Shown here in pieces: positions 6,659 through 63,369 of a stretch of DNA of 64,000 nt (positions are counted from its first letter, which is position 1; each line of letters begins with the position of its first letter). The DNA is from Acetobacteraceae bacterium (GTDB lineage Bacteria; Pseudomonadota; Alphaproteobacteria; Acetobacterales; Acetobacteraceae). The DNA lies in contig JBEKQQ010000027.1 of the NCBI GenBank assembly GCA_049519555.1, positions 10,533 through 74,532 on the forward strand. Direction: 5' to 3'. Below the pieces are notes generated by a model. The model was not told the DNA's origin. It saw only the letters and a list, made by a program, of their open reading frames with translations, and did no database searches. Made by a program: the position numbers and the translations under genes.

Positions 6659-6660
6659 TA

Positions 6661-7572
6661 ATGTTCTGGTCCGGCAGCCATGCCCAACGCGGCATGTTCG
6701 CGTTCATTTGCTTTGTCTGGGGCACCACCTGGCTCGCCATGAAAGTGGGCATCGCATCGGTGACCCCTGGCATATTCGCCGGCCTGCGCTGGACCATCGC
6801 CGGCGCGGTCCTGTTGCTGATATTACGATTACGCGGCGAACGAGTCAGACCGCCGTTACGGTTCGTGCCGCGTTTGACGTTTGTCTCGGTGCTGCTGATC
6901 ACGTTGAACCAGGTGATCCAACTCTATGGCCTGAAATACATCACCGCCGGTCTTGCAGCTGTGATCAGTTCTGCATTGACGCCAATCTCGCTGCTCGGCT
7001 TCGCGGTGGCCTTTGGCCAGGAAGGCTTCACAAAGCGTCAGGTCGCCGCTCTGGCGATGGGGGCCATCGGTGTTTGCACCCTGTTTGGACCATCCGCTTT
7101 CGCCGGCACATTGCATCTGTCCGAGATCGGCGGAGCGCTCGGCGTCACCATTGGCTGTCTTTGTTACACCGCCGGATCCGTCATGACGCAGCCGATGATG
7201 CGGCACTTTGGCGCAGTGCAACTCGCCGGTCTGACCGACATGGTCGGCGGCATCGTCCTGTTATTTGCCTCACTCCTGTTGGAGCCGGGTGCCTGGGCAT
7301 CGATCGCTTTCCACTGGGGGTGGCCGGCGTTCCTGGCATGGCTATATTTGCTGATCCCGGGGGCATTGCTGGCGACAACGATGTATTTCCTGCTGGTCCG
7401 CGACTGGGGCGCCAGCAAGCCTGGTCTTTATGCGTTCATTTCCCCGGTCATTGCCGTGGTGCTCGGCGCCTGGCTGTTCGGCGAGCACCTGAACTGGGGC
7501 GATGCGGCCGGCATGACTCTGATGCTCGGCGCTGCCGGCCTTGCGTTGCGGCGTCCCGAAGTGGCACGGTGA
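6661..7572 (+). CDS. EamA/DMT family transporter
   Basis: 303 aa, about 10 hydrophobic spans. FICFVWGTTWLAMK start and two EamA-like halves. Confidence 0.75.
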   Translation: MFWSGSHAQRGMFAFICFVWGTTWLAMKVGIASVTPGIFAGLRWTIAGAVLLLILRLRGERVRPPLRFVPRLTFVSVLLITLNQVIQLYGLKYITAGLAAVISSALTPISLLGFAVAFGQEGFTKRQVAALAMGAIGVCTLFGPSAFAGTLHLSEIGGALGVTIGCLCYTAGSVMTQPMMRHFGAVQLAGLTDMVGGIVLLFASLLLEPGAWASIAFHWGWPAFLAWLYLLIPGALLATTMYFLLVRDWGASKPGLYAFISPVIAVVLGAWLFGEHLNWGDAAGMTLMLGAAGLALRRPEVAR

Positions 7573-7576
7573 TCTT

Positions 7577-17271: not shown

Positions 17272-18125
17272 CAGCCATTCACCTTCCGAATGATCTCGGC
17301 CCATTGGTCGAGGATCGGCAAAATTGCCGGCGCCTTGTCGGACTCCAAACTGCAGGACACGCGGTTCACGCCGGCATCCTGATACTGCTTGATCACGTCG
17401 ACATCCGGCCGCTGCCCGCCAATGGAAATTTCCAGCGCTGCCGGATCGCGGCCGTTCTCAGCGGCCATCTGCCGGAAGCGAGGAATCAGCTCGAGCAGCG
17501 GGGTTTTGGCATATTCGGTAACCTGCGGCATCCAGCCGTCTCCGTAACGGACGGCGCGGCGCGCGGAATACGGAAACGCCCCGCCGACGAGAATTGGCGG
17601 ATGCGGCTTCTGCACCGGCTTCGGCCACGCCATTATTGGATCGAAATTGACGAATTCGCCGTGATATTCGGCCTTGTCCCGGGTCCAGATGGCTTTCATC
17701 GCCTCGATGCGTTCGCGCGCCAGTTTGTGGCGGCTGGTGAAGACGGTGCCGTGGTTCTCCATCTCGTCCTGGTTCCAGCCGTTGCCGACGCCGAACACGA
17801 ACCGCCCGCGGGAGATCTGGTCGATCGAGGCCACCAGTTTGGCGGTTTGAATGGCATCCCGCTGCGCGATAAGACACACGCCGGTGCCGATTTTCAGCGT
17901 CTTCGTCGCCAGCGCCGCCGCGGTCAGCGTGACGAACGGATCCATCACGTCATAGTAACGTTTTGGCAAATCGCCACCCATGATGAACGGCGTCTTGCGC
18001 GAGACCGGAATGTGCGAGTGCTCCGGCGCCCAGACGATGTCAAAGCCACGTTGCTCCAGAGCAACGGCCAGCTCCGCCGGTGCCATGGAATAGTCGGTGA
18101 AGAACATCGATGCGCCGAATTTCAT
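17271..18125 (-). CDS. LLM-class F420-dependent-type oxidoreductase
   Basis: 284 aa. MKFGASMFFTDYSMAPAELAVALEQRGFDIVWAPEHSHIP is typical of the TIGR03619-like LLM subgroup. Confidence 0.8.
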   Translation of the reverse strand: MKFGASMFFTDYSMAPAELAVALEQRGFDIVWAPEHSHIPVSRKTPFIMGGDLPKRYYDVMDPFVTLTAAALATKTLKIGTGVCLIAQRDAIQTAKLVASIDQISRGRFVFGVGNGWNQDEMENHGTVFTSRHKLARERIEAMKAIWTRDKAEYHGEFVNFDPIMAWPKPVQKPHPPILVGGAFPYSARRAVRYGDGWMPQVTEYAKTPLLELIPRFRQMAAENGRDPAALEISIGGQRPDVDVIKQYQDAGVNRVSCSLESDKAPAILPILDQWAEIIRKVNG

Positions 18126-18134
18126 GACAGAACC

Positions 18135-18500
18135 CTATTTGCAAGGATAGCGTTCGCCGAGGAACTTAAACAGCCCGTCCAGCGCCGGCAGATCGCGATT
18201 GGCGGGCGTCGCCCGCACCCAGGTCACAAAGTCGTGCATTGTGGCGGTTCGGGTCGGTGCCGGAACCGGGAAACAAAACGGCTTCCGGTCGCCGGCGCCG
18301 TGCAATCTGGTATCAACCGCGCCCTGGGCAAACCCGTGGCAATAATTGATTTTGGCATCGGCACCTGGAGAACCCGGTTCAGCGGCACAAAGCGCAGCCA
18401 GTTCGCCGGCCGTATGCGCCTGCAGCAAGATCGGTTCCGCCGCTCCAGCCGAGCCGGACAGTAACCCCAGACCACAAGCCAACACCACTAACCACTTCAT
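18135..18500 (-). CDS. Secreted Rap1a/Tai4-like small protein
   Basis: Internal ATG at 18500 gives the signal peptide [23 protein letters not shown], then [11 protein letters not shown] and FCFPV...YPCK, the Cys pattern I associate with Rap1a/Tai4 immunity-like proteins. ATGA overlap with the queC stop. Confidence 0.5.
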
Positions 18501-31931: not shown

Positions 31932-32549
31932 TTGAGCGATGTTCCGCTCGCCGCCTCCCTCGCCGCGCTGCGGCGCGAGGAGGCCGCGTGCCAGCGTTGC
32001 AGCCTATATCGCCACGCAACGCAGGTCGTCCCCGGCGAAGGCCCGCTCCGCGCCAGGCTCATGCTCATCGGCGAGCAACCGGGCGACCGTGAAGACCTCG
32101 CCGGCAAGCCGTTCGTTGGACCAGTTGGCCGGGTCCTTTCGCGCGCAATGCAGGAGGCGGCCGTTCCGCGCCACGAGGTCTTCGTCACCAATGCAGTAAA
32201 GCATTTCAGGTTCGAGCAGGGGGGCAAACGCCGCATACATCAACGGCCCGCCGTCAGCGAGATCGAGGCCTGCCGCTGGTGGCTGGATCGTGAACTGGCC
32301 CTCATCAAACCGGCCGTCATATTGGCGTTGGGTACCACCGCAGCACGCGCTGTGCTTGGCCGCACGATCGCAATCCACCAGGCGCGCGACCGTACCGAAA
32401 TGCTCGCTGACGGCACGCTCGTGCGGGTAACGATTCGTCCATCTGCATTGTTGCGGCGGCAAACGGAAGCGGAGATTGACGCCGAATATCAAAGATTCGT
32501 CGGCGACCTCCGCATGGCGGGCGCGCTCGTTGGCTACGGTGCTACGGCC
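31932..32549 (+). CDS. udgX: UdgX-type family-4-like uracil-DNA glycosylase domain (no in-frame stop until 33830)
   Basis: TTG start. CQRCSLY Fe-S Cys pair, motif A GEQPG (32070..32084), VTNAVKHF, KRRIH loop (32226..32240), motif B region reads TIRPSALLR with Arg (cgt 32436..32438) where family 4 and UdgX have His. The 3' end is undefined because the frame runs on into the HlyD-like gene. Confidence 0.7.
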
Positions 32550-32813
32550 AAGGTCTCAGCGCTTTCAGGCATGCGAGCCGGAACCATCGGCGGTGGCCCA
32601 GACTTTATAGCGAGGCGAGCGAGGATCCCGGCACGCGGCAATGCCGCGGCGCCTGATCCGGCTTGGCAATGGCGCGCAACGCGCCTGGTACCACGCCGAG
32701 ACCGCAATGGCTTCTGGTTGGAGGCAATCATTCCCGACGATCCGCGCCACGCCATCGGCACAGACACGCGGCCCGCCCCCCGGACGCCACGGGAGCGGCC
32801 GCACGATTTCCTG

Positions 32814-33830
32814 ATGCTCGCCGACGACGATGATGACCGTGGTCAGCGCGAGCGCGATGCGGGCTCGCGGCCCGATCCAGACGCCAAAAGACGAACCACG
32901 CGGCGATTGATCGGCTTCGCGATTCTCGGTGCGTTGTTATTGGTGGCGGGGATCGGCTTCGGTATCTACTGGTGGACCGTGCTGCGTTTCTACGCTTCCA
33001 CCGACGACGCTTACACCCAGGCCGACGCCGTCATCATTGCGCCGCAGGTCAGCGGATACGTCACGGGGTTGCTTGTCACCGACAACCAGCGAGTCCACGC
33101 CGGCGAAACATTGCTTCAAATCGACCCGCGGCCGTATCAGGCGACGCTCGATCAAAGCATCGCCAACCAGGAGAAAGATCAGGCCAACCTGGCGAACGCG
33201 CAGACCAATTTCAGCCGCGATGCGGCGGTCATCAAAGACAACCTCGCGATCAGCCGGCAGCAGTACGATACCGACAACGCCACCGTCGCCGCCGATAAAG
33301 CCCTGGTCGATGGCGACAAGGCGCAGGTCGAAACCGCCCGGCTGAACCTCGGCTACGCGACCATCGTCTCGCCGGTCGATGGCGCCGTGGGCGATCGCTC
33401 GGTGCAGTTCGGCGGGTTTGTTCAACCGGGCGAGGGATTGATGACGATCGTGCCGATGGGGCGCGCGATCTACGTTGTCGCCAATTTCAAAGAGACCCAG
33501 ATCGAACAGATGTTCCGCGGCGAGCAAGCCGATCTCAGCATCGACAGCTTTCCCGGTGTCCACTTCACCGGGACCGTGGCCAGCCTGGCGCCCGGTAGCG
33601 GCGCAGAGTTCGCCCTGCTGCCACCCGAGAACGCGACCGGGAACTTCACCAAGATCGTGCAGCGCGTTCCGGTCAAGATCCTGATCGACAATCCGCCGCC
33701 GGACCGGCTTGACCAGTTGCGGCCCGGTCTCTCCGTCGAGGTAAGCGTCGACAGCCGCACCGCGCCACCCAAAGATCAGCGGCAAACGCTCGTCCCGTTG
33801 GCGGTGGCAAAAACCCCGCCGCCACCCTGA
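32814..33830 (+). CDS. HlyD-family membrane fusion protein (EmrA-like)
   Basis: In-frame ATG at 32814 (MLADDDDDRGQRE...). TM segment LIGFAILGALLLVAGIGFGIYWW, then YASTDDAYTQADAVIIAPQVSGYVTGLLVTDNQRVHAGETLLQIDPRPYQ (the canonical EmrA lipoyl-like hairpin start). TGATG overlap with the MFS gene. Confidence 0.8.
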   Translation: MLADDDDDRGQRERDAGSRPDPDAKRRTTRRLIGFAILGALLLVAGIGFGIYWWTVLRFYASTDDAYTQADAVIIAPQVSGYVTGLLVTDNQRVHAGETLLQIDPRPYQATLDQSIANQEKDQANLANAQTNFSRDAAVIKDNLAISRQQYDTDNATVAADKALVDGDKAQVETARLNLGYATIVSPVDGAVGDRSVQFGGFVQPGEGLMTIVPMGRAIYVVANFKETQIEQMFRGEQADLSIDSFPGVHFTGTVASLAPGSGAEFALLPPENATGNFTKIVQRVPVKILIDNPPPDRLDQLRPGLSVEVSVDSRTAPPKDQRQTLVPLAVAKTPPPP

Positions 33831-44772: not shown

Positions 44773-44910
44773 GGTGGGGGCTCCCTTGGTTTGCGGCGCA
44801 ACCTGGCGGGCCGGCTCGGATCGCGCAAGCGGGCATGCTGGCTGGTAGGCGCGGCGCGATCGGGATAGGTGTTCCCGGGTTTGAATGTTGCGGCGGCAAC
44901 GGAGGCAACG

Positions 44911-45738
44911 ATGCGAGTGATCGACGTCCAGGTTCATGCCTATGAACGCAATCATCCCGCCCGCCCATGGGCTGGCGTGTTGCATGGGCCGCAGTCGGCC
45001 AACGGCGAAGAGATGACTGCCGCGATGGACGCGGTCGGCGTCGATGCGGCGATCATTGTGTCCACCTTCAATCTTTATCGTTACGACCCAAGCTACGCGA
45101 TGGGGGTCTACGCGCGCTGGCCGGACCGGTTTCGCGTGGTGAAGCCGATCGATGTGACGGACCCGGCAATCGACGAGGTTGTCGCCGAGTGGGCGGCGAC
45201 CAAGGGCGCAGTGGGGGTGCGGATCATGCTGCGCGATGAGCTGCCGAGCGATCCGGCGGATCCTCGGGTGAACCGGGCGTTTGCGGCGGCGGGCCGGCAT
45301 GGGCTGCCGGTGAATTTTCTGTGCTGGGGCAGGTTGGAGCACGGCACGGAACTGGTGAAGCGCAATCCGGATACGGTGATCGTCATCGATCATCTCGGGC
45401 TGTTGCAGCCTGCAGAACCGCCGCCGCCGGCGGAGCCCTGGGCTGATCTGCCGAAGCTGCTGGCGCTGGCGGTTTTTCCCAATGTGCGGGTGAAGATCAG
45501 CGGGGCCTGCACGTTGTCGCAGGCGGGTTACCCGTATAGGGACATCTGGGAACCGGTGCTGCGGATCATCGACGCGTTCGGGTTGGATCGGTGCATGTGG
45601 GGAACGGACTGGACGCGGACCAGTGGGATGTTGACATACGAACAGGGGGTGCGGCCGTTCTTGGAGACGACGCGGTTGTCGGAGGGGGATAAGGCGAAGT
45701 TGATGGGTGGGACGTTGGAGAAGGTTTATGGGTGGTAA
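44911..45738 (+). CDS. Amidohydrolase-2 family (PF04909, ACMSD/LigI-like) metal-dependent hydrolase
   Basis: ATG at 44911 behind GGAGG. MRVIDVQVHAYE (HxH), VIVIDHLG, WGTDWT. Confidence 0.8.
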   Translation: MRVIDVQVHAYERNHPARPWAGVLHGPQSANGEEMTAAMDAVGVDAAIIVSTFNLYRYDPSYAMGVYARWPDRFRVVKPIDVTDPAIDEVVAEWAATKGAVGVRIMLRDELPSDPADPRVNRAFAAAGRHGLPVNFLCWGRLEHGTELVKRNPDTVIVIDHLGLLQPAEPPPPAEPWADLPKLLALAVFPNVRVKISGACTLSQAGYPYRDIWEPVLRIIDAFGLDRCMWGTDWTRTSGMLTYEQGVRPFLETTRLSEGDKAKLMGGTLEKVYGW

Positions 45739-46793: not shown

Positions 46794-47172
46794 TCGCGTG
46801 CGTCGATCGGGTCCCTGCACCCGGTACGGATCAGCGTCAACCGCGCCCGGCTTTGATCCAAATCAAAGACATGCGCCCACGAATGAGCGAAACCTCACCA
46901 CTTCAATCACGGCTGCCGAGATCCAGGATGCGGTAGTGCGCGAGCGGGGAGCCAATGATCGTGCGACCTCTGACCACAGCAGCGGCCGGGTGGGCCAACC
47001 ACGGCCTTGGCGATAGCACCCTGATGCCCGGGCCGCCCAGGTTTTATGCTCGCTGCCGGTCCGACAAACCAGGCCACGCTGCATCATTCGACGAGCCGCC
47101 GTGTCCCACCGCGGTCCCGGCCAGGCGACCGCCGAACAGTCCCACCTAACCTCGCGGAAGGACCCTCCAAAC

Positions 47173-48123
47173 ATGCCGCAAGCCTCGCAAGGAACCCGCT
47201 TTTCCGCAGATCCCCTGACCTTCATCGTCAGACATGAACTGTGGGACGGCAACGTTCAGGATCACGCCGACCAGGGCGTATCCATCGCCGTGGCATCCGA
47301 CGTCGACGGCCGCGAAACCGCGCTGCTCCGCTTCAACTGCTTCGACATCGAGAAAAGCTACATCTACGGCCCGGAAAATCCCGATCTGCGCATTGCGGCA
47401 CCGATGATGTTGGGTGGTGCGGAGCGCTTAAGCAGTGGCATGGGCCAGCTCTACCGCATGGACCCGGTCACCGACGGCAATCCCATCGGCTGGACCGTCC
47501 GGACGCTGGCAACACAGCTTCCGGCCATGCTCGACCGCGCCGGCTACCAGACGATCGCCGCGCGCACCAACCTCGCGGCAGTGCGCCGGGTCCTGCCTGA
47601 CGTCGAAGCCTGCGCCCGAGACCTGTTCGGCGCGCGGCGCAACACGGTCAAACACAACCGAGGCACCGACATCTTCGACGCCGGCAACATCCGGTTCGGG
47701 CTCGAGATGCGGAGGTTGCCGATGGGCGATGGCGGCCTCGCGATCCACGTACTGGGCGATGTCGGCGGCTCGACGCGCAAGTCCTACGTGGAGGAGACCG
47801 AGCTGTTGGCGTTCGATTGTTTTTGGGACGGTGCGCATTATCACTACGGACCGCGCAACAAAAACCACCGCATTTACTGGGACCGGACCCTGGTTCGCGA
47901 TCCGTTGGAATGGGTGTTCGCCCAGTTGGAAAACCGCAAACTGGGCGCGATGATCGAGCGCGCCGGGTATCCCGGGATCGCCGCCGACCTGGACGCGGAC
48001 AAGGTCGCGTCAGTGCTTCCGGCGATGAAACAACGGGCCTTCGAGATGTATGCAGAAGGCGAGCGCCTGACCGGCCACAAGGGCCTGCCGCTGGAGCCGA
48101 CGCCGAACCTCGCTGCCGATTAG
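47173..48123 (+). CDS. Hypothetical protein built from two homologous halves
   Basis: ATG at 47173 behind GGAAGGA. Half 1 GVSIAVASDVDGRETALLRFNCFDIEKSYIYGPENPDLRI...WTVRTLATQLPAMLDRAGYQTIAA aligns with half 2 GLAIHVLGDVGGS..ETELLAFDCFWDGAHYHYGPRNKNHRI...WVFAQLENRKLGAMIERAGYPGIAA. No family recognised. Confidence 0.6.
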   Translation: MPQASQGTRFSADPLTFIVRHELWDGNVQDHADQGVSIAVASDVDGRETALLRFNCFDIEKSYIYGPENPDLRIAAPMMLGGAERLSSGMGQLYRMDPVTDGNPIGWTVRTLATQLPAMLDRAGYQTIAARTNLAAVRRVLPDVEACARDLFGARRNTVKHNRGTDIFDAGNIRFGLEMRRLPMGDGGLAIHVLGDVGGSTRKSYVEETELLAFDCFWDGAHYHYGPRNKNHRIYWDRTLVRDPLEWVFAQLENRKLGAMIERAGYPGIAADLDADKVASVLPAMKQRAFEMYAEGERLTGHKGLPLEPTPNLAAD

Positions 48124-48351: not shown

Positions 48352-49428
48352 ATGCCCTTCGACTCCCGCCGCATCCACGACGTCCCGGACGACCTGCTCG
48401 CCGCCATCGACTATTGCTACGAGCAAGGCTGGACCGACGGGCTTCCGGTCATCCCTCCGGTGGTCGACCGGGTCGACGCCACGCTCGCCTTCGAGGGCCG
48501 GCCGCCTGAGGCGGTGATCGCCACCCACCCCGCCACCGGCCTGCAACTGACCGTGCACGCCGCCGCGGTCAACGCCGTGATGGCGGGTTGCATGCCGGAG
48601 TATTTCCCGGTTCTGGTCGCCGCGTTCGAGGCCATGGACAAGCCGGACTTCAATTTCCACGGCTCGACCGCCAGCACCGGTGGATCGGCGCCGCTGCTGA
48701 TCGTCAGCGGCCCGGTTGCCGACGACATCGGCATGAACGCGGATGTGAACCTGTTCGGCCCGGGAAACCGGGCGAATGCAACGATTGGCCGCGCGGTGCG
48801 GTTGATCCTGCGGAACGTGTTCCAGATGATCCCGGGCATTTCCGACAAGTCGACGCAGGGCAATCCGGGGAAATACAGCTTCTGTATCGCCGAGCGCTCG
48901 CGTAGCAATCCGTGGCCGTTGTTGTGCGAAACGCAAGACTATCCGCCTGGCGTGTCCAGCGTCACGGTGTTCGCTGCCGGCGGATTCTGCAACGTCGAGA
49001 ACCATGGCGGCAATACGCCCGAACAAATTCTGCTTTCCGTTGCCGACGCCATGGCCAATTACGGCTGCATCACACTGGGCCAGAGCGTCGTCATCCTGTC
49101 GCCCGAGCATATGCGTATCGTTGCCGGCGCCGGATGGAGTCGCTCGGATGCACAGCGTTTTCTGTTTACGCACGCCAAACGGTCCATTGAAGGAATGCAA
49201 TCGGTCGGCAAGTACCGCGACAGCGAATACGACCACCAGCACGGTAGCAACGCGCACGCATTGGCCGAAGCTGGTTTTGTCCATCGCGGCATGACGCCGG
49301 ACGATATCCTGATCACCATGGGCGGCGGGGATGCCGGCGGCCACTCGTGCTTCATTCCGTCGTGGAGCCGGGGCCGCGGTTCAATTTTCCAGCACAAACC
49401 GATCGGGGTGTGCATCGACTGCGTATAG
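48352..49428 (+). CDS. Conserved-looking hypothetical protein (358 aa)
   Basis: ATG at 48352 (MPFDSRRIHDVPDDLLAAIDYCYEQGWTDGLPVIPP...). Well-ordered globular composition. Ends 9 nt before the selenoprotein candidate. No family recognised. Confidence 0.6.
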   Translation: MPFDSRRIHDVPDDLLAAIDYCYEQGWTDGLPVIPPVVDRVDATLAFEGRPPEAVIATHPATGLQLTVHAAAVNAVMAGCMPEYFPVLVAAFEAMDKPDFNFHGSTASTGGSAPLLIVSGPVADDIGMNADVNLFGPGNRANATIGRAVRLILRNVFQMIPGISDKSTQGNPGKYSFCIAERSRSNPWPLLCETQDYPPGVSSVTVFAAGGFCNVENHGGNTPEQILLSVADAMANYGCITLGQSVVILSPEHMRIVAGAGWSRSDAQRFLFTHAKRSIEGMQSVGKYRDSEYDHQHGSNAHALAEAGFVHRGMTPDDILITMGGGDAGGHSCFIPSWSRGRGSIFQHKPIGVCIDCV

Positions 49429-49437
49429 GAGGAACTC

Positions 49438-49959
49438 ATGCGATTATACGACCCGACGTCGTCGGGACCGGAACGGACCTTGTTCCGCGCGCCGCCGTTA
49501 CCTGCGCTGGAGGGCAGGACCATCGGCATCCTGGAAAACAACAAGCTGAACGCTGTGGAAATGCTGCATGAGGTCGCCGCTTTGTTCGAGGCGCGGCATG
49601 GTTGCGTTGTCCGGCCCGTGTATTCGAAGTCGAACGCGAGTGCTCCGGCGCCGGCTGAGGTGCTCGCGAAAGCGGCGGGCGACGTGGATTTTCTGATTAC
49701 CGGGCTTGGCGATTGAGGCTCTTGCTCGACGTGCAGTTTGCATGACGGCATCAGTTTCGAACAGCTTGGCAAAAGGGCGGTGGTGCTGTGCACCGAACCG
49801 TTCGAGGTAACGGCGCGGAATATTGCCCGGATCATGGGGTTGCCGACGTATCCATTCCTGATGGTGCGGCATCCGATCGGCAGTTGCACGTTGCCGGAAC
49901 TGCAGGAACGGGCAGAGGCGGCGTATCGGCAGGCGTTGCCGATTTTACTGGAAGGATGA
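49438..49959 (+). CDS. UGSC-motif selenoprotein candidate (in-frame TGA at 49714..49716 read as Sec)
   Basis: Track ORFs 49438..49716 and 49738..49959 share a frame and are separated only by the TGA. Read-through gives ...DFLITGLGD-U-GSCSTCSLHDGISFEQLGKRAVVLCTEPF... AGGAGGAAC RBS before 49438. A hairpin follows the TGA. Confidence 0.65.
49726..49748 (+). promoter_or_regulatory. SECIS-like hairpin downstream of the in-frame UGA
   Basis: tcgacgtgca-gtt-tgcatgacgg: 9 pairs (including G-U) around one A/A mismatch. The apical GUU lies about 20 nt after the UGA. Confidence 0.45.
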
Positions 49960-50026
49960 GCAGCGGGAGCGGATTGCCATTGAACCGGTGGGGCGACTAC
50001 TTCTAATGTGCCGATGGAGGCCAGCG

Positions 50027-50551
50027 ATGGACCACGACACCCTGTATGAGACCGACATCTGCTCCTGGGCTGAACAGCAGGCGGCGGCGCTACGAGGACT
50101 CACGTCCAGGGTGGACCTCCCAAACGAACTCGATCTGCTGAATGTCATTGAGGAGATCGAAGACGTGGGGATCAGCCAGCTTCGTTCCGTCAGCAGCTTC
50201 ATGCGGCTCATTCTGTCGCACATCATTCTGCTCGCGGTCGACGCCGATGCTGATTCGGTGAACCATTGGACCCGCGAAGTGGCCACGTTTCGTGGCGAGT
50301 TGATGCAGTCCTGGCAACCGAGCATGCGGCGGCGGATCGACATGGACCAGATCTGGCGCCGTGCGGTGGAAGAAGCGACTCTGAAGCTGTCCACTTATCG
50401 CAGGAACGGAATCGCTTTCGATGCGGATGCCATCAGCGGCCGGCTCGGGCCGGTCAGCCTGTTTGGCATCGACGATCTGTGCGGAGAAAGTTTCAGATTT
50501 CATGACCTGCTGGAACGACTCCGGGTGCGGCTTGTCCAGGAGTCGCCCTGA
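50027..50551 (+). CDS. DUF29 family protein
   Basis: ATG at 50027. MDHDTLYETDICSWAEQQAAALRG...LDLLNVIEEIEDVGISQLRSV matches the DUF29 N-terminal pattern (LYE.D...W...Q...L..........N..EEIE..G). Confidence 0.7.
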   Translation: MDHDTLYETDICSWAEQQAAALRGLTSRVDLPNELDLLNVIEEIEDVGISQLRSVSSFMRLILSHIILLAVDADADSVNHWTREVATFRGELMQSWQPSMRRRIDMDQIWRRAVEEATLKLSTYRRNGIAFDADAISGRLGPVSLFGIDDLCGESFRFHDLLERLRVRLVQESP

Positions 50552-50750
50552 TCACCAAGAACTTAGGTCTCGCATCTCATTTTCTTCAGGTCGGTTGCTT
50601 GGCTACCCAAATACCTGTCGCTTGAGCCAATGCATGTGTTGCCAGAATTCTTGCGTCAACTTTCGAGCTGAACGACAGCAGTCAAAAGTTCTTGTTTCCC
50701 GGTAATTCTTCTTACCTTTGGAAACTTACCGTTTGCAGGATGCGTTGTTG

Positions 50751-51876
50751 TCAAGAATGGCGCCGAACACAGCGAAAACCGAGACCGTCACCCCTTAGGC
50801 TTGGGGCGTTCCGATGTCTACATGCTGCACGGACATTCCACGCATCATCAAGCCACGATGCGCCGCGACCAACGCGATCTGCGGCATCGTCACCGGTTCC
50901 TCGGGCAGGCCCGTCGGAATGCGCGCCAGCGTGTCCTCCGTAGTCTCCGTCCGCGCACCACTCCCAGACATTTCCCAGCATATCATAGAGCCCCCACCCA
51001 TTCGGCGCCTTCTGTGCAACTGGATGCGTCTGCTCATCGCTGTTGCCGGACCACCAGGCAATTCGATTTAAGGCAGCCGTTTCGCCACGTTCGTTAACAA
51101 CGGCGGGGCCAGCATATGTCGATGATGTCGTTCCTGCACGACAGGCGTATTCCCACTGCGCCTCTGACGGAAGAGTAAGCGCGAGTCCAGGTTTGAGCGC
51201 GTTCAACGATTCTATAAACCATCGTGTATCATGAAAGGATACGCTCTCCACAGGATGGTTTGGGCCTTGGAAGCGGCTGGGGTTAGTGACCATTACACTG
51301 GTCCACAGGTCCTGGGTTGCTAGGGTTTCAAACATCCAAAATCCTGCACGAAAACTGATTGGCTCGCTGAGGCCTTCATTTTCGAAGCGACCGTTCCCGT
51401 CCGGGGGGGGAACCCATGCGAAAGTCTTGCCCCGGTGGAATCCATCGTAGGCGCTGGGTGACTGTTGTGGAGCCCGTAATAGTCAAGCTAAATGATGCCC
51501 ACGGGCCGACTTCATCTGTTCCAGAATCGTCAGCCCACGAAGATGGGGGGTATTTTTCAGTCGGGAAAATCGCCTCTTCAATCGCCCAGGCTTTATCGAA
51601 TATTGCCTCCTCCAGCCCAATAGATTTTGAAAAATCTGCACCTTTTAATATGGCGCCGGTAAAAATAGTCCCTGCGACATTAGCTCCTGCGAAATCCGCG
51701 CATGTAAAATCAAAACCTCCTAGATTCTCGCCACGAAAATCACCCCCACGGAGATCCCCGTAGCGGAAAGACATACCCGGAGAAAGGCCCGCAATATAGA
51801 CGAGTTCAACAAACGTCTCAACTTTCGAATCAAAAACCTCCCGTACCTTCATTCTGAGTTTATCCGATATATTCAT
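50751..51876 (-). pseudogene. Pentapeptide-repeat / FGE-sulfatase (SUMF1) domain protein, reading frame broken at a G8 (coding-strand C8) homopolymer
   Basis: ORF 51376..51876 gives pentapeptide repeats (DLRGGDFRGENLGGFDFTCADFAGANVAGTIFTGAILKGADFS), then LRWIPPGQDFRMGSPPGRERSLRK*. The other frame, past the run 51403..51410, reads PPPDGNGRFENEGLSEPISFRAGFWMFETLATQDLWTSVMVTNPSRFQG...WEYACRAG...GLYDMLGNVWEW...RGASW...GFRCVR (FGE domain). G7 or G10 would restore a single ORF of about 375 aa. Confidence 0.75.
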
Positions 51877-51942
51877 TTCTCGACATTTGCCTTCATCATA
51901 GACCGCTCAGCCAGAATCACGTGCCTACCTTCCATAGGGCAC

Positions 51943-52986
51943 TCATCCAATATTACTTGTTTGATTAATTATTTCCTTCAAAGTTCTAACCTTTCGCGAT
52001 GTTGCGATATCATTATCTAATGCAGAAACTTCGATCTCATTCTTAGTGGCGGTGACCCTGGCGGTAAATCTTGGCGGTCCCCAAGACAACGGCTCAAGCA
52101 TTGCGACATAATCTTGGTGTGGCAATGCGTCAAAGCTGAGGCCTAGCCGATTATCCAACGGAACGATCTTTCGACCACCTGGGACGAATTCGCCGAAATG
52201 ATCAAATAACTGATAGACCCCCGATCCAATAACACCGCCAAGACCAATCTGGTAGCCCGAAGCGGAAACGGTTAAGTTCGCGCTGGAGAGCGATAATGTT
52301 ATGTCAAGCCGTTCGTCTGGCATTTCAAGTACTGTGTCATGTACGAAAAATCGAAGTGTGGCCTTGATCCCATAGCTACCGGAAGGAGTGTTCCATCTGT
52401 CCGGTTGATGTAGCCTGAACTCAACCATTCGGTCGAAGTCATGCCCTGTGGCCACTAGAAGCCAGTCTTCTGCGGGTTTCCCACGTGTGGTTTCCATACT
52501 CCGCGGAGACAGTATGGTGTCGGCCGACTCTGCTTTAGCCGGTAGGTTTGGCCAACGCACAAGTTCGCGCTGGAGTTCCATCCCAGCCGACAAGGCATTG
52601 TGCACTGATCTACCATTGGCTTCCCTTGATCGACCACGCTTTTCACTCCGGGCGAGGTCACAGGCGGCCTGGAAATCGGCCTTTTGTCGCTGCTCAACTT
52701 CGTCGCCTCTGGCCGCGTTCGGGTAAAACACCTTCAGGAAGGCCTCGACCTTGTCGGGGTCTGGTATCGTTTCGCGACGGAGCCAGTGCCGAAGTGAGTC
52801 CTTGCCAAAATCCTTCTGCCCTGCCGAAGACATTGCCCTAACGAACGCCACAGCATCCCATCCATCTAATGACTGTCCTCGTCCAGGTGGCATGCCCTGG
52901 CCAGTATCATAGCAGACTCTGAACAGGTTCCAGACTTGCGCCTCGGCGGGCGTTTCGGGTTTCCCAGGTTTCCTTGGATTCCGCAC
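51943..52986 (-). CDS. Orphan hypothetical protein (347 aa) in the low-GC island
   Basis: Long ORF in AT-rich DNA, where chance ORFs are unlikely. Lies 66 nt upstream of, and co-directional with, the pentapeptide-FGE gene. No motif recognised. Confidence 0.6.
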   Translation of the reverse strand: MRNPRKPGKPETPAEAQVWNLFRVCYDTGQGMPPGRGQSLDGWDAVAFVRAMSSAGQKDFGKDSLRHWLRRETIPDPDKVEAFLKVFYPNAARGDEVEQRQKADFQAACDLARSEKRGRSREANGRSVHNALSAGMELQRELVRWPNLPAKAESADTILSPRSMETTRGKPAEDWLLVATGHDFDRMVEFRLHQPDRWNTPSGSYGIKATLRFFVHDTVLEMPDERLDITLSLSSANLTVSASGYQIGLGGVIGSGVYQLFDHFGEFVPGGRKIVPLDNRLGLSFDALPHQDYVAMLEPLSWGPPRFTARVTATKNEIEVSALDNDIATSRKVRTLKEIINQTSNIG

Positions 52987-53601
52987 TTACAGGCTAGCCT
53001 TTCCTAGGGTGCTACGCATCGTGGCGATGGCCAATGCCACCGAGAATATCTATCATGCCAAATCCCCACAAGCACCAGTATCTCTTGTGTGCCGTCGCTC
53101 ATTTTGCGCTGGCGATCGCGACATTTGAGCACGGGCTTCCAATCGCACTTGCGGAGCTATTGGTCGCATCGATCTATATCGATCTCGCGATCCGATGAGC
53201 TCAAACCTGCACGCCGGGGCTGCTACCTTCCATTTTGTAGCCTTTTATGGTTCTTGCCTCATCCGACCTCGAATCTGTTTGGGGCACAAGATCTCGCCCT
53301 AATTCACACCTCAACTTGCTGCTTGCAGTTGATTTACCTGAAGTATTTCGGTCTATATGGGTGGTATTATGTCAGCTGATCGCCTCGGCGGATTTTGTTG
53401 TTCCGGATGTTGTCCGCCGCTGGACGGTGGCGAACCGTTTATCTGGGCCTTTCACACGACTTTCTGTGATGCGGCAACTCTCCGCGTCAGCCTGAGTCCG
53501 GCTGACCACCGTGCCCCACTTCCAGCGCACTGCCAAACCACGATACCCTCTGTCAACAACCGGCCCAATCGGCCAACCCACACACCCCGGGGAGAACGGA
53601 C

Positions 53602-55218
53602 ATGCAAGCAGACTACGTCATCGTCGGTGCCGGCTCCGCCGGCTGCGTCCTCGCCAACCGCCTCACCGAGGACCCCACGATCAATGTCATCCTAATCGAG
53701 GCCGGCGGACGCGACCGCAACCCGCTCATCCACATCCCCGCCGGCTTCTTCAAAATGCTCGACCACGACACGCTGACCTGGAAATACCGCTCCGAGCCCG
53801 ACCCCGGCACCAACGGCCGCGCCATCAACTACACCCGCGGCAAAGTGATCGGCGGCTCCTCCTCGATCAACGGCCTCATCTACATCCGCGGCCAACCCGA
53901 GGACTACGATCACTGGGCTCAGCTCGGCAACCGCGGCTGGTCGTGGGACGATTGCCTGCCGTTCTTCCGCAAAGCCGAACGCTGGGAAGGCGAAGGCAGC
54001 GACGTGCGCGGCAAGGACGGCCCATTGTTCACCTCTAAAATCGACCGCTCGCCGATTTGCGCGCAAGTGGTCGAGGCCGGCAAGCAGCTTGGTCTGGAAT
54101 ACCGCGAGGACCTCAACGACCTGCCGCCAGGCCACACCGACTGCATCGGCTGGTGCCAGCAGACCCGTGGTGGCCGCCGCCGAGCCAGTGCCGCCCGCAC
54201 CTACCTGCACCCCGCCCTGAAACGACCCAACCTGCAACTCATCACCAACGCACTGGTGCATCGCATCCTGTTCGACGGCAAACGCGCCACCGGCATCGAA
54301 CTTTCCCGCGGCGGCGGCACCACCGAAACGATAACGGCAACAAGGGAAACCATCCTCTCAGCCGGCGCAGTCGGCTCGCCCCTCATCCTGCAACTATCGG
54401 GTGTCGGCGACCCCGACCACCTCGGCACCATCGGCGTCCCCGTGCTGCATGAAATGCGCGGCGTCGGCCGCAACATGCAGGACCACTACACCGCCCGCGT
54501 GTCGTATCCCGTCGTCGGCATGGCCACCGCCAACGAAAAGTCCCGCGGCATTCCGCTCGCCGTCGAGGTCGTCCGTTGGGCGCTCACCGGCAAGGGCATG
54601 TTGAGTTACAGCCCGTCGCTGGTCGCCGCATCGGTGAAAGTGCTGGAAACGTCTGCCACCCCCGACATGCAGGTCACCTTCGCCCCCGGCAGCTTCAAGG
54701 GCGGCCAGATCGGCGAGCTGGAGGAAACCCCCGGCCTCAGCGCCGGTGCCTGGCAGATGCGTCCACTTTCGCGCGGCTACGTCGAGGCGCGGTCGAGCCG
54801 GCCGGGCGACATGCCGGCGATCAACCCGCGTTACCTCTCCGACGAATCCGATCGCCGCGCCATCATCGGCGGGTTGCGTTTCGCACGGAAGCTGTTCGAG
54901 GCACCGGCGCTGAAACAATACGTCCGCGAGGAAACCCTGCCCGGCCGCGACATCCAGACCGACGATGAACTGCTCGATTATGCGCGGCGTAACGGCGGCA
55001 CCTGCTACCACGCAAGCTGCACTTGCATGATGGGCACGCACCCGATGAGCGTGGTCGACAGTCAGTTGCGCGTGCACGGTCTCGACGGGTTGCGGGTGAT
55101 CGATGCCTCGGTCATGCCGGCGGTCACCTCGACCAACACCAATGCGCCGACCATCATGATCGCCGAGCAAGGTGCGGCGATGCTCAAGCAGGCGACACGA
55201 CAAAAACTGGCGGCGTAA
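53602..55218 (+). CDS. GMC-family FAD oxidoreductase (choline dehydrogenase-like)
   Basis: MQADYVIVGAGSAGCVLANRLTEDP...GGSSSINGLIYIRG...C-terminal HASCTCMMG...VIDASVMP. Confidence 0.9.
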   Translation: MQADYVIVGAGSAGCVLANRLTEDPTINVILIEAGGRDRNPLIHIPAGFFKMLDHDTLTWKYRSEPDPGTNGRAINYTRGKVIGGSSSINGLIYIRGQPEDYDHWAQLGNRGWSWDDCLPFFRKAERWEGEGSDVRGKDGPLFTSKIDRSPICAQVVEAGKQLGLEYREDLNDLPPGHTDCIGWCQQTRGGRRRASAARTYLHPALKRPNLQLITNALVHRILFDGKRATGIELSRGGGTTETITATRETILSAGAVGSPLILQLSGVGDPDHLGTIGVPVLHEMRGVGRNMQDHYTARVSYPVVGMATANEKSRGIPLAVEVVRWALTGKGMLSYSPSLVAASVKVLETSATPDMQVTFAPGSFKGGQIGELEETPGLSAGAWQMRPLSRGYVEARSSRPGDMPAINPRYLSDESDRRAIIGGLRFARKLFEAPALKQYVREETLPGRDIQTDDELLDYARRNGGTCYHASCTCMMGTHPMSVVDSQLRVHGLDGLRVIDASVMPAVTSTNTNAPTIMIAEQGAAMLKQATRQKLAA

Positions 55219-58952: not shown

Positions 58953-59426
58953 TCAGCCCGGAAACCACCCGTGCACGACGCCGAAGCCTCCGGCGACGTT
59001 GGCCAGAGCACGCAACTGGATCAACGACAACACGAGATCCGCGGATCTTCCGCAATTCTGCGCTCCATCATCCGTGCGCCGCCCCGACCAGTGCACCAGG
59101 AACACCGGCGGATGGGCCAACTGTTTCGCCTCGATCACGAAACTGCCGCCACCGGCAGCGATCACCGACGGCGTCAGCACACAACTTTGGCGCGACGCGG
59201 CGAACGATGCCAGGCGGGCCGGAATTCCCGGCATCTCCCACCGCTTGGGTCCATCATGCGGATCGAATGTCACGATCTCCCCGACATCGGGACCGACCTC
59301 CTGCATTTCCGACAAGCTCAACAGGCAGGTCATCAGGCACAGCGCGAACGCAAGCAGATAGGTCAGCAGGGAAAAAACGCCGAGGTCTTCGTCGGTGCGA
59401 TCAGACGAATGATCGAATTCGTCCAT
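58953..59426 (-). CDS. Hypothetical membrane-anchored protein
   Basis: 157 aa with one TM segment (VFSLLTYLLAFALCLMTCLLSL). Sits 5 nt downstream of the Rieske gene stop on the same strand. Confidence 0.45.
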   Translation of the reverse strand: MDEFDHSSDRTDEDLGVFSLLTYLLAFALCLMTCLLSLSEMQEVGPDVGEIVTFDPHDGPKRWEMPGIPARLASFAASRQSCVLTPSVIAAGGGSFVIEAKQLAHPPVFLVHWSGRRTDDGAQNCGRSADLVLSLIQLRALANVAGGFGVVHGWFPG

Positions 59427-59431
59427 CTGCG

Positions 59432-60745
59432 TTATTCCGCGGCTTCGGCGAACCCGGGATGCAACGCCTCCGCCAGGGTTTGCTCATAAGCGTCGAGCCA
59501 GCGGTGCTCCGCCGGTGCGATCAGGTCACCCGAGCGAGCGATCGTGCTGGCCTGCGGATTGTCGACCAGTGGCGGCACCGTGCCATGATCGCGCAGCGCA
59601 CGCACCGCATCCAGCAACCGTCGTCTCGTCAACGTAATCATCCGATCGCTCGGCGCCAGATGCTCGAGCGTGCGGTCGCTGATCGCGCCCATGCTCTCCG
59701 TCACCGCAGAGTCCTGAGTGAACACCTCGGCGATCCCGCTGTAGCTGAAAGTCCTCTGGGCGTCGCGATCAATGAGATAGTCATTGCTTTGATTGGCCGC
59801 CGGCCGCCAGCGGCCGAACCAGTCAGACGTGTTGGGCAATGTCGCCGTGGCGCGGTCCAGATACGGGATCGGCTCGCCGGTCTTCAGCAAGCCCAGAGCC
59901 GGAGTCCGGGGTTTCCAACTGAAATAATACGACATCGTATGGGTGTCATCCATCGGCACCCACGCCTGAGCGATGACGTTGTCCTGCAACGGTCCGTTCG
60001 GAAACAGCGTCCAGAACGGCATCGCGAAATGGGCGAACCGGTAATAGGTGTAGCCAGGTTCCGCCGGTCGGTGCGCCGTATACATGGTGCCCCAGTCAGT
60101 CGCCCTGACATGATATTCCGGCGCGCGATCGATCAGCTGAAAGCGTTCCAGGTGGTTCGGGTCGATGTCGCCGATCTCAACCTTTCCGGTGTGCAGAAAG
60201 CTGAAATGCGAGGTGTCGATATCGCCCTCCAGCGCCTGCAACCAATTGCATTCCCGTTGCTTGCAGTTGAGTTCGGTTTCCTCCGGCGGGCAGAGCATCA
60301 CCTCCAGCGCCGGCAAGGGTGGAGCGACCGCACGCTCCCCCATATACACGTAGACCAGCCCGCCGCGTTCGGCGACTTTGTAGGCCTTGGCTTTGACTTT
60401 ACTGCGAAAATCCTGATCGGCAGGGAGATTTGGCATTTCCAGGCAATTGCCGGCGGTGTCGAATTTCCAGCCGTGGTAGACGCAGCGGATGCCGCCCTCC
60501 TCGTTGCGCCCGAAGTACATCGACGCACACCGGTGCGGACAGCGATGATCCATAACGCCGATGCACCCGCTGCTGTCGCGGAAGGCAATCAGCCGCTCGC
60601 CCAACAACATCAGGCGCAGCGGATCGCCGTCGGGCTCGAGTTCCGATGATAGACACGCCGGCAGCCAATACTGGCGCATCAGTGCGCCCATCGGAGTGCC
60701 GGGTCCAACGTTGGTCAGCAACTCGTTTTCGCTCTGAGAGGTCAT
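59432..60745 (-). CDS. Rieske [2Fe-2S] ring-hydroxylating oxygenase alpha subunit (phthalate-family type)
   Basis: CPHRCASMYFGRNEEGGIRCVYHGWKF Rieske motif. Later the mononuclear iron region DTSHFSFLH. Confidence 0.9.
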   Translation of the reverse strand: MTSQSENELLTNVGPGTPMGALMRQYWLPACLSSELEPDGDPLRLMLLGERLIAFRDSSGCIGVMDHRCPHRCASMYFGRNEEGGIRCVYHGWKFDTAGNCLEMPNLPADQDFRSKVKAKAYKVAERGGLVYVYMGERAVAPPLPALEVMLCPPEETELNCKQRECNWLQALEGDIDTSHFSFLHTGKVEIGDIDPNHLERFQLIDRAPEYHVRATDWGTMYTAHRPAEPGYTYYRFAHFAMPFWTLFPNGPLQDNVIAQAWVPMDDTHTMSYYFSWKPRTPALGLLKTGEPIPYLDRATATLPNTSDWFGRWRPAANQSNDYLIDRDAQRTFSYSGIAEVFTQDSAVTESMGAISDRTLEHLAPSDRMITLTRRRLLDAVRALRDHGTVPPLVDNPQASTIARSGDLIAPAEHRWLDAYEQTLAEALHPGFAEAAE

Positions 60746-60966
60746 GTTTGGTTGCCTCCTGTTCAGTGTGCGACTGCATGCTTCAACGCCGGAACCGTAT
60801 GCAAAGTTCGCGCCAGGCTCGATTGGGAACGCCTGTTCAAATCGTCATGGCCCTCCCCCGACTTGTTCTGGGGATCTCCGGACCATCTGGCGCCGCACAG
60901 TGCTGGTTCAGATGGCCATTACGTTGAAAGGCCGGTACCATCAGTCGATCGTCAAGACGGTTGGTA

Positions 60967-62055
60967 TTATTCCGCCGCCATCTTGTAGGCCTCCCGGCAG
61001 TGCATCAGCGGCAGAATGCGCGTGCCGAATTGCTCCATGCCGATAACGAAATCATCAAACGTCAGCATCACGCCCTCGACGCCCGGCACGGTGGCCAACT
61101 CGTCCAGCATCCGCGCGACGCTGGCATAGGAACCGACCAGCACGCCGCCCTGTGTTGGCAGTTTCTCGGTGCCCAGTGTGCGGCGCTTGTTCGGGCCCGC
61201 CAACGGATCGCGCGACGGGTCATCAGACGCCTGGGCGTCGCGCCAGGCAATGGCTACGGTGTCGGTGCCGGCTTTGTAATGCTCCCATTTCGCCATCGCC
61301 GCCGCGTCGGTCTCATCGGCGATGACCATGGTCAGCACCAGCGCGCCGCACTTGCCGCCGAATTCCTGGTTGGCCGCGACCAGCCGGGCGACACTGGCGG
61401 TCACCATGGTCGGCGTATTGATCCCGCCGCTGGAGCAGAAATTGTAATCGGCATGCTGTGCGGCGTAGCGCGTGCCGGCATCGCTCTGACCGGCCGATAT
61501 GATAGGGATTTTCGCCGTCGGCATCGGCAGGCAGCGGCAATCGTCCATCTGGAAGAAGTCGCCTTTGAAGTCGGAGCGACCGGTCGCCCACAACTCCTGC
61601 ATGATCGTCACGTACTCGCTGCAATAATCATAACGCCGATTGTAGTGGTCCGATCCGGGCCAGATCCCCATCTGCGCATATTCGCGCCGCTGCCAACCGG
61701 AGATGATGTTCACGCCGAACCGCCCGTGGCTGATGCTGTCGATCGTGGTTGCCATCCGCGCGGTGAACGGCGGCGGCACGGTCAGGACCGCGCAGGTCGC
61801 GAACAGCTGGATCCGGCTGGTTACCGAGGCGAGGCCCGCCATCAGCGTAAACGATTCCAGGTTGTAGTCCCAGAATCCCGATGGGCCGCCGAAGCCATGC
61901 AGCTTGATCATCGACAAGGCGAAGTCGAAACCGAACGCCTCAGCCTTTTGCACAACGGTTTTGTTGAGGTCGAAGCTTGGCTTGTATTGCGGCGACGTGG
62001 TCGAGATCAGCCAGCCATTGTTACCGATCGGAATAAAAACACCAAGCTGCATCAC
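60967..62055 (-). CDS. rutA: RutA-like pyrimidine monooxygenase (LLM family)
   Basis: [54 protein letters not shown]...[12 protein letters not shown]...[24 protein letters not shown]...[13 protein letters not shown] closely tracks the E. coli RutA sequence as I remember it. Confidence 0.75.
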
Positions 62056-62067
62056 GGGTTTCCTATG

Positions 62068-63369
62068 TCATGAGGTGACGAATTCGTTCCATCTTCGGGT
62101 CAGATAGCGGTCTTCATCCATCACCGCGTTCCACGCGGCGATATGGCCCAGTCGATCCCAAAAGGCGCCGCCGTCGCGGACGGCACCGGGATGCTCCATC
62201 ACTTTGCCAAACTGATTGACGATGTCGGTGGTGGCGGGTTTACCGCCGTACCAGTAATCCCATTCCGCTGCCGTCAGGAATTTCCGGGCGTTCTCCGGCT
62301 GCGCCGCGTAGTAGCCTTCGCGGGCGATGAACGCGCCCTGGAACCCGCTGGTGTACCAGTTCAGATATTCGTAGAAGCAATCCAGTTCCAGGCCTTGCAC
62401 GTGTTTCATCACACCGAACGCCGTGCACCAACCTCGGTAACCTTCCTTCAACGGCTGGAACGTGCAGGGAATGCCGCGTGAGCGGACGGCAGCAACGGCC
62501 GGGGCAATCATCGACTGGATGACGACCTCCCCGGATGCCATCAGGTTGACCGACTGATCGAAAGTCGACCAAAACGAACGAAACTGGCCGTTCTTCTTGA
62601 AATCGGTCATGACCTTGACGGTCTTGTCGATCTCGTCCTTCGTCATGTTGCCTTTGTCGCCGTATTTGATCTCGCCAAGCGCTTCCAGCGCCAGAGCGGT
62701 GTCCATCACGCCGATCGTCGGCTGCTCTTGCAACGCGGCGCGGCCTTTGAAATCCGGTGACAGCAGATCGGCCCAACTGGTCACCGGCCGGCCGGTCAGG
62801 TCGGGCCTGATGCCAAGTGTGTCGCCATTGGTGATCATCGGCAGGACGGTCAGCCATTCACTGGGCCCGTCGTGAAAACTCTGACCGCCGGCGTCGTTGG
62901 CATAAATCACAGTCCAGGGTGCGGTGCCCTGGCGCGGCGCTTTGCGCCCATCGGGCAACTCACCTTTGGTCAGCACCGGGATCGTTTTGTCCCAATCCTT
63001 GACCTTGGCCAGCGGGATGGCCTGCAGAACGTCTCGGCCGACCAGATATTTCATGAACGTGATGCTGATATCGGCGCAATCCAGCGAGGTCGGCGCGGTC
63101 AGCAGACGGTTGAGCAGATCATTGCCCTCGGATGCCTGCATCTTGACGGTGAAGCCGAGGTCTTTGTTGGCCTGCTCGCCGATGGCCGGGATCGCGGTGA
63201 CCGGCGTGCCGTTGTGCCGCAGCACCACATCCTTGATGTTCTGCGCCCAGATGAGCGGGAAACCGGTGATGGCACCGGCTCCGGCGGCGGTTCCTGCGAT
63301 GGTAGCGGCGGTTTTCAGCAGCGCCCTGCGGGACGGGGAGGCAACATTTCGAAAAGTGCGACGCGGCAT
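62068..63369 (-). CDS. ABC transporter periplasmic substrate-binding protein (family 1, PotD/PotF-like) with Tat signal
   Basis: SRRALLKTAATIAGTAAGAGA twin-arginine leader. 433 aa. No permease or ATPase genes within the window. Confidence 0.75.
   Translation of the reverse strand: MPRRTFRNVASPSRRALLKTAATIAGTAAGAGAITGFPLIWAQNIKDVVLRHNGTPVTAIPAIGEQANKDLGFTVKMQASEGNDLLNRLLTAPTSLDCADISITFMKYLVGRDVLQAIPLAKVKDWDKTIPVLTKGELPDGRKAPRQGTAPWTVIYANDAGGQSFHDGPSEWLTVLPMITNGDTLGIRPDLTGRPVTSWADLLSPDFKGRAALQEQPTIGVMDTALALEALGEIKYGDKGNMTKDEIDKTVKVMTDFKKNGQFRSFWSTFDQSVNLMASGEVVIQSMIAPAVAAVRSRGIPCTFQPLKEGYRGWCTAFGVMKHVQGLELDCFYEYLNWYTSGFQGAFIAREGYYAAQPENARKFLTAAEWDYWYGGKPATTDIVNQFGKVMEHPGAVRDGGAFWDRLGHIAAWNAVMDEDRYLTRRWNEFVTS

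Follow-up and report, generated by a model that had tools for sequence, protein, structure and literature searches.

Gene structure

Positions 49438..49959 on the forward strand of a 64,000-nucleotide stretch of Acetobacteraceae DNA (contig JBEKQQ010000027.1, hereafter the window) contain a gene of the UGSC family whose internal in-frame UGA is real and, judged by sequence comparison, almost certainly encodes selenocysteine (Sec). The frame opened by ATG 49438 is open up to TGA 49714-49716 and then continues in frame to TGA 49957-49959; the open reading frames (ORFs) 49438..49716 and 49717..49959 are a single gene split by the first of these TGA codons. Read through, the coding sequence (CDS) has 173 codons including Sec93, with TGA 49957-49959 as its stop, and gives a product of 173 amino acids, ...FLITGLGD-U-GSCSTCSLHDG... 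(tail: GSCSTCSLHDGISFEQLGKRAVVLCTEPF), in which codon 93 (49714..49716, forward strand) supplies the putative U of U-G-S-C. A Shine-Dalgarno sequence, AGGAGG at 49427..49432 on the same strand, can be read directly from the sequence 5 nt 5' of the ATG. The original prediction had described two same-frame ORFs parted only by the TGA, a 173-residue read-through product with a U-x-x-C motif, and a second ORF lacking a ribosome-binding site of its own. The sequence agrees on each point, and TTG 49738, the listed start of that second ORF, has no purine-rich Shine-Dalgarno sequence in the usable range of 5-12 nt upstream.

TGA is the stop codon of 14 of the 23 confidently identified genes of the window, the UGSC gene's own terminator among them, and the UGSC gene alone among the 23 has an internal TGA; a reassigned genetic code is excluded on these two grounds.

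Comparative analysis of the UGA codon

One scan of representative bacterial genomes yielded 80 orthologous loci at 69-92% protein identity, nearly all of them from metagenome-assembled genomes of Alphaproteobacteria (Acetobacteraceae, Reyranella, Hyphomicrobiaceae, Rhodospirillales), together with Reyranella soli NBRC 108950. The codon aligned with codon 93 of the window gene is TGA in 80 of 80 loci and TGC or TGT in none, and the alignment runs across it without gaps. Identity among the orthologs is at least 74% in the C-terminal half, above the value of at least 61% in the N-terminal half. Seven codons (GSCSTCS) lie between the TGA and the earliest codon that could serve as a start, and nearly all 80 genomes keep them, one having GRC in place of GSC. 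A U-G-R-C variant (codon AGA) was seen in one ortholog, at L022:4634-4645, with an unaltered selenocysteine insertion sequence (SECIS); its TGA was checked separately.

HMMER, run exhaustively against 1.84 billion representative proteins, returned 657 relatives. Among 119 distant full-length homologs (28-39% identity) the Sec column holds Cys in 115, and the motif is CGSC in 82. A second, diverged UGSC gene, present in four loci (L050, L055, L065, L075), also carries TGA at this position. The original prediction had proposed to look at whether this column is Cys or Sec in homologs; on the aligned sequences, TGA in all close orthologs and Cys in nearly all distant ones is a textbook Sec/Cys signature.

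Putative SECIS element

The hairpin that had been predicted at 49726..49748 is present. It has a GUU loop and nine pairs, interrupted by an A16/A32 mismatch, and forms the core of the structure of minimum free energy for 49714-49775 (62 nt from the UGA; -19.2 kcal/mol). It was compared in an alignment of 58 distinct sequences, paralogs included. The part that stood is the apical stem-loop, CGUGCA-GUU-UGCAUG at 49730..49744 on the forward strand, with loop G23 U24 U25 and occupying positions 17-31 when the U of the UGA is numbered 1: its 6-bp stem C17-A22/U26-G31 is paired in 58 of 58 sequences, the sole variable pair, G18:Y30, being GU, GC or, once, AU. In the UGSC paralog the apical sequence is unchanged, while overall its aligned sequence shows only ~40% identity. 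Normalised synonymous entropy, too, falls to its minimum for the CDS at the hairpin, in the six-codon windows 96-101, 95-100 and 97-102 (0.25-0.32 versus 0.67 elsewhere), where Thr98 is ACG in 79 of 80, Cys99 TGC in 80 of 80 and Ser100 AGT in 80 of 80 loci; all six Ser codons occur in the remaining Ser columns.

The SECIS of E. coli fdhF is an experimentally defined bacterial SECIS, in which G23 and U24 are the SelB contacts; its sequence was confirmed in 5,419 E. coli genomes, within annotated fdhF. Both hairpins directly follow the UGA within the CDS and have a UGCA/UGCA upper stem, and G23-U24-C25-U26-G27-C28-A29 of fdhF and G23-U24-Y25-U26-G27-C28-A29 of the UGSC genes stand at identical distances from the UGA. 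They differ in the loop, which has 4 nt in fdhF (GGUC) and 3 nt in UGSC (GUY), and below the upper stem, where fdhF has a bulged U17 and UGSC an A/A mismatch.

Family assignment

For profile searches, Sec was written as Cys in the window product. The name "UGSC family (seleno)protein", which the original prediction had raised from NCBI protein naming, fits the gene as far as the family is concerned: Pfam PF24696 (UGSC family) matches with 154.9 bits against a threshold of 25 (E 2.9e-45), residues 3-170 aligning to positions 2-170 of the 172-position profile. The U/C-G-S-C motif follows ...G-x-G-D, as GLGD-U-GSC in the window protein and as CGSC, CGAC or CGGC in 106 of the 119 distant homologs. 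PDB sequence and profile searches with the UGSC protein and with the product of the gene upstream of it (see below) gave nothing meaningful.

Most of the database relatives, in a collection of 5.8 billion proteins, stop at ...GLGD, which bears out the earlier remark that gene callers split or truncate this gene. Two near-full-length entries carry W at the TGA position, because TGA was translated there under a Trp-reading table. Other entries are frameshifted chimeras. Database artefacts around the UGSC gene were noted in P0001, P0003, P0026 and P0015; P0026 is an out-of-frame chimera of the C-terminus of the upstream protein and the UGSC C-terminus, and P0015 is frameshifted past residue ~60.

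The UGSC family (Zhang and Gladyshev) has been known since about 2006-2008, and the window gene is a correct rediscovery, not new: it adds a member to a known family of unknown function. The family was first noted in Hyphomonas neptunium; for this species and for metagenomes, a "UGSC-containing protein" is described as a selenoprotein without known function (PMC1976440). The Global Ocean Sampling (GOS) aquatic metagenomes held 255 Sec and 21 Cys forms (PMC2398784), a survey of about 5,200 bacterial genomes detected the family in 26 (PMC5029168), and reviews of 2022 and 2026 still list it as uncharacterised (PMC9312934, PMC13188914). The genes studied here resemble those of the literature in the U-G-S-C motif and in a strong preference for Sec over Cys, and their alphaproteobacterial, freshwater and soil sources fit the reported non-marine enrichment.

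Structure prediction and remote similarity

An AlphaFold2 model was calculated for the ortholog P0001 (65% identical) with an alignment of 105 diverse family members. It shows a single domain spanning the TGA position (predicted local distance difference test (pLDDT) 94.8, predicted template modelling score (pTM) 0.89), built as a doubly wound arrangement of five beta-alpha units with the Sec position between strand 3 and helix 3. Foldseek searches of the PDB with this model returned flavodoxin, WrbA, TIR and similar proteins, flavodoxin-like domains aligning at template modelling (TM) scores of 0.4-0.5, and no thioredoxin-fold protein among the top 50 matches. The UGSC fold is thus predicted by the model to be flavodoxin-like, not thioredoxin-like. 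The "likely Trx-like fold" of the earlier literature is left unsupported by this confident model and by the lack of a thioredoxin in the top 50. Assignment to the thioredoxin-fold oxidoreductases, which would place the redox motif at the start of helix 1, was rejected, the motif of the model following strand 3.

Sub-threshold matches to TIGR01917 (GrdB) were obtained with 25 of the 105 family members, and others match TIGR01918, PrdB, GrdF, GrdH or a generic selenoprotein-PB model. The matched region of GrdB is its Sec-containing C-terminal part (profile positions ~330-411 of 431). By sequence, the UGSC domain shows a weak but consistent remote similarity to the Sec-bearing region of GrdB/PrdB. 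Membership in the GrdB/PrdB selenoprotein B family itself was rejected, since the best individual scores reach about 19 bits and the cutoff is 602. The GrdB/GrdF/GrdH/PrdB proteins (PF07355, TIGR01917/TIGR01918/TIGR04483) share a UxxC Sec motif with UGSC, as listed for GrdB and PrdB in Table 2 of PMC2398784.

The upstream partner gene

Immediately upstream of the UGSC gene, on the same strand and separated from it by a 9-nt intergenic gap, 48352..49428 encodes a 358-residue protein (hereafter the partner) with a TAG stop that overlaps the ribosome-binding site of the UGSC gene. ATG 48352 was taken as its start because conservation begins only at ORF residue ~56-64; a GGAG lies about 10 nt 5' of it. 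The partner stands directly upstream of the UGSC gene in 80 of 80 Sec loci (68-92% identity), and a homolog (34-49% identity) adjoins UGSC in 8 of 8 distant Cys-type loci; any other neighbour recurs in at most 17 of 81 loci. Fusions of the UGSC domain with the partner domain occur in P0195, P0258, P0260 and P0269. In the four loci with a second UGSC gene, a diverged partner-UGSC cassette precedes the main one by about 1 kb (approximately L050:457-2060, L055:2337-3930, L065:2366-3940 and L075:2366-3925), its partner copy being ~39% identical and directly upstream of its UGSC paralog. Since the paralog has its own diverged partner upstream, the cassette was duplicated as a unit.

At least 7,959 relatives of the partner are present in the database; among the best 120 listed, every name given by the source is "hypothetical protein" and none has a Pfam domain. 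No Pfam, NCBIfam or PDB relative of the partner was found even at E<=1. Homology to GrdE, PrdA or the N-terminal region of GrdB was considered and rejected, eight diverse members having no Pfam or NCBIfam match at E<=1. The AlphaFold2 model of the partner is of moderate quality (pLDDT 69.7, pTM 0.74), and Foldseek found nothing in the PDB at E<=0.001, the best match having an E of 0.057 and a TM score of 0.24 (class I fumarate hydratase, Toblerone-fold hydrolases); with no significant fold match in the PDB, no conclusion on the partner fold is drawn. The pairing may correspond to the "UGSC/Unknown_1" fusion that the 2008 GOS paper (PMC2398784) shows as an image only.

The arrangement recalls GrdB/PrdB, which likewise have a separately encoded partner subunit. 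Unlike GrdB, however, the UGSC protein has only ~173 residues and lacks the rest of GrdB, its partner resembles neither GrdE nor PrdA nor the N-terminal region of GrdB, and its hosts are for the most part aerobic Alphaproteobacteria instead of Stickland fermenters.

Domain fusions and gene neighbourhood

In P0204 (502 residues) a CGSC-type UGSC domain is fused to a thioredoxin-reductase-like Pyr_redox_2 domain (pyridine-nucleotide-disulphide oxidoreductase, CGTCDG motif), which hints at the electron donor of the family. A NifU-like domain is fused to UGSC in P0172, P0179, P0208 and P0298 and is found at the N-terminus of P0260, and a NifU-like CxxC protein (73-101 residues, C-E-x-C-L-V-P motif) is encoded beside 3 of the 8 Cys-type UGSC-partner loci (L081:592-897, L082:3538-3807, L083:3242-3463). 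As a third component in the Sec clade the NifU-like protein was rejected, being absent from the window and from all 80 loci.

An Amidohydro_2-family gene lies near the cassette in the window (44869-45738), in its two closest relatives, L001 and L002, and in the distant Cys-type locus L085. Around the Cys-type cassettes, short-chain dehydrogenases, SBP_bac_5 binding proteins and IclR/TetR regulators are met repeatedly. These recurrent neighbours suggest a catabolic context. Just upstream of the partner, 47101..48123 encodes a 340-residue protein of repeated DUF7700 domains (three matched stretches, 208 bits). Neither this gene nor the downstream DUF29 gene was accepted as part of the module, a similar sequence standing beside the cassette in 1 of 80 loci in each case.

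Interpretation and alternatives

Taken as a whole, the locus very probably encodes a 173-residue UGSC selenoprotein with a SECIS-directed Sec93, a flavodoxin-like redox domain and a dedicated partner. As judged from the comparative data, the stem-loop that starts 13 nt downstream of UGA93 would present G23 and U24 of its loop to SelB carrying Sec-tRNASec, Sec would be inserted at the UGA, and translation would then run to the genuine stop, TGA 49957-49959. The product is modelled as a single flavodoxin-like alpha/beta domain that would hold U93-G-S-C96 between strand 3 and the start of helix 3, a position typical of Sec/Cys pairs that are redox-active or nucleophilic. Genomic context further argues that the UGSC protein works with the co-translated 358-residue partner, most likely as the selenol- or thiol-bearing subunit of a two-subunit enzyme. 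Elsewhere in the family, a thioredoxin-reductase-like flavoprotein may supply reducing equivalents, or a NifU-like CxxC domain may relay them, since such domains are fused or adjacent there.

Several observations weigh against this interpretation. No selA, selB or selD was found in a Pfam scan of the 20 size-matched ORFs of the window, which proved to be unrelated, ordinary metabolic genes, and ARAGORN detected no tRNA-Sec in the 64-kb window (tRNA-Ala only) or in 60 related loci. The folding energy of the hairpin is not unusual for G+C-rich DNA (z -1.14; 24 of 200 shuffled sequences fold equally well), and loose SECIS-like hairpins (stem of at least 6 bp and a loop with G-U, 17-30 nt after the TGA) follow 40 of the 1,744 TGA triplets of the window (2.3%). 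The apical stem is backed by invariance, without compensatory changes, and being invariant it was uninformative in a covariation test of the 18-pair hairpin. The lower pairs of the hairpin first predicted fared worse: pair 15-33 has 8 compensatory A-U and 24 unpaired cases and pair 7-40 is unpaired in 23, and the extended predicted hairpin (49714..49759, forward strand), which belongs to the same -19.2 kcal/mol fold and includes the UGA itself in its lower stem, is weakly supported and was not retained by RNAalifold. As many of these lower-stem pairs are broken, only the apical element is claimed. No SECIS family of Rfam matched, either at the gathering threshold over the window or at E<=10 over 49600-49900, which says little because no Rfam model captures this element. 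The sole NCBIfam match, NF041046 (UGSC family (seleno)protein), reaches 113.8 bits, below its curated equivalog cutoff of 125. The protein modelled was the ortholog P0001 with Trp in place of Sec, instead of the window protein. The similarity to GrdB is weak and confined to a region (best E 4.6e-5), and the window protein itself has no GRDB match at E<=0.01.

What places the UGA and its hairpin far beyond chance, as far as sequences can tell, is comparison: the TGA in 80 of 80 loci, the conservation of the flanking protein, and the minimum of synonymous variation on the hairpin. The last of these, with the intact apical stem, also answers the question of hairpin conservation on which the original prediction had made itself depend. 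As to the NCBIfam score, ortholog P0001 reaches 113.2 bits, the paralog of L050 131.1 and Cys-type homologs 111-156; the partner-linked alphaproteobacterial clade, at 113-114 bits, thus differs from the second paralog and several Cys forms, which pass the cutoff, and the clade of the window gene would be missed by the NCBI naming rule.

Were the TGA a genuine stop, the gene would encode a protein of 92 residues, and the ORF from TTG 49738 would be a separate gene or untranslated. Automatic gene callers treat the codon in this way, which is how most database entries come to end at ...GLGD, and the lack of detectable Sec machinery in the window would agree with it. Yet the GSCSTCS codons, which precede any possible start, are conserved, the downstream half is better conserved than the upstream half and has no ribosome-binding site before TTG 49738, and the model is one domain with the TGA between strand 3 and helix 3. 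Homologs that genuinely end after GLGD with a separate gene behind them, which the original prediction had named as evidence against itself, were not what was seen; homologs are continuous, with Cys at the TGA column. A genuine stop is therefore barely credible. Practically no weight can be given to a pseudogene, or to a sequencing or assembly error that made a stop in a Cys-type (CGSC) gene. Single-base changes from TGC or TGT to TGA are common, and the relatives P0015 and P0026 are visibly frameshifted, but the TGA recurs in 80 of 80 independently assembled genomes and in four paralog copies, no close ortholog has TGC or TGT, and purifying selection is evident downstream of the TGA, which effectively refutes this explanation.

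A UGA read through without Sec, by a code reassigned to Trp or Gly, by a near-cognate suppressor or by a Cys-tRNASec, is likewise very improbable. It could appeal to the two database entries with W and to the missing Sec machinery within the window; the W entries, however, reflect a Trp-reading table, TGA is an ordinary stop in this DNA and internal nowhere else, homologs have Cys, and a conserved SelB-type hairpin stands at the canonical distance. The suggestion made in 2008, that UGSC is a free-standing thioredoxin-like thiol-disulfide oxidoreductase whose neighbour would merely be a client of a general reductant, concerns function and not decoding, and we regard it as unlikely. The UxxC motif and the fusion of P0204 to a thioredoxin-reductase-like flavoprotein speak for it, whereas the doubly wound beta-alpha-beta model matches flavodoxin-like folds, with no thioredoxin-fold protein in the top 50. 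A dedicated subunit fits better than a general reductant, given adjacency in 88 of 88 loci, co-duplication, and fusion with one specific partner.

With the selenoprotein with a dedicated partner as the preferred explanation, a bolder and, as a whole, doubtful proposal is that UGSC/CGSC and partner might make up a two-subunit (seleno)enzyme, so far unrecognised and very widespread among environmental bacteria, with a stand-alone Sec subunit distantly related to the catalytic Sec domain of GrdB/PrdB and a partner representing a new catalytic or substrate-binding fold, and might carry out a reductive transformation of small molecules in catabolic gene clusters; the catabolic part of it draws on the short-chain dehydrogenases, amidohydrolase_2, solute-binding proteins and IclR/TetR regulators that recur around the cassette. 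The selenoprotein call itself matters mainly for annotation. Because the genes are split or truncated in databases and the clade falls below the NCBIfam cutoff, UGSC may be undercounted in surveys of soil and freshwater alphaproteobacterial selenoproteomes. UGSC is among the most abundant environmental selenoprotein families; the strict pairing with an equally abundant "dark" partner, the flavodoxin-like fold and the remote similarity to GrdB/PrdB offer handles for finding its function. The less ordinary point at this locus is the constant pairing of the UGSC gene with the unannotated 358-residue partner.

Other features of the window

Directly downstream of the cassette, at 50001-54000, the G+C content is 0.54-0.565, compared with 0.60-0.66 elsewhere. 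The minus-strand genes of this region encode an FGE-sulfatase-domain protein (50751..51335), a pentapeptide-repeat protein (51376..51876) and a 347-residue protein without Pfam match (51943..52986). The region may be a horizontally acquired island.

In a 632-residue ORF at 31932-33830, residues 34-192 match a uracil-DNA-glycosylase-superfamily domain and residues 342-607 HlyD/membrane-fusion domains; the ORF probably represents two genes joined by the mechanical definition of ORFs, or else an unusual fusion. Long ORFs of 370-480 residues without Pfam match, which overlap long ORFs on the opposite strand, occur at 17103-18464, 59207-60649, 6600-7823 and 60961-62073 and are likely shadow ORFs of G+C-rich DNA.

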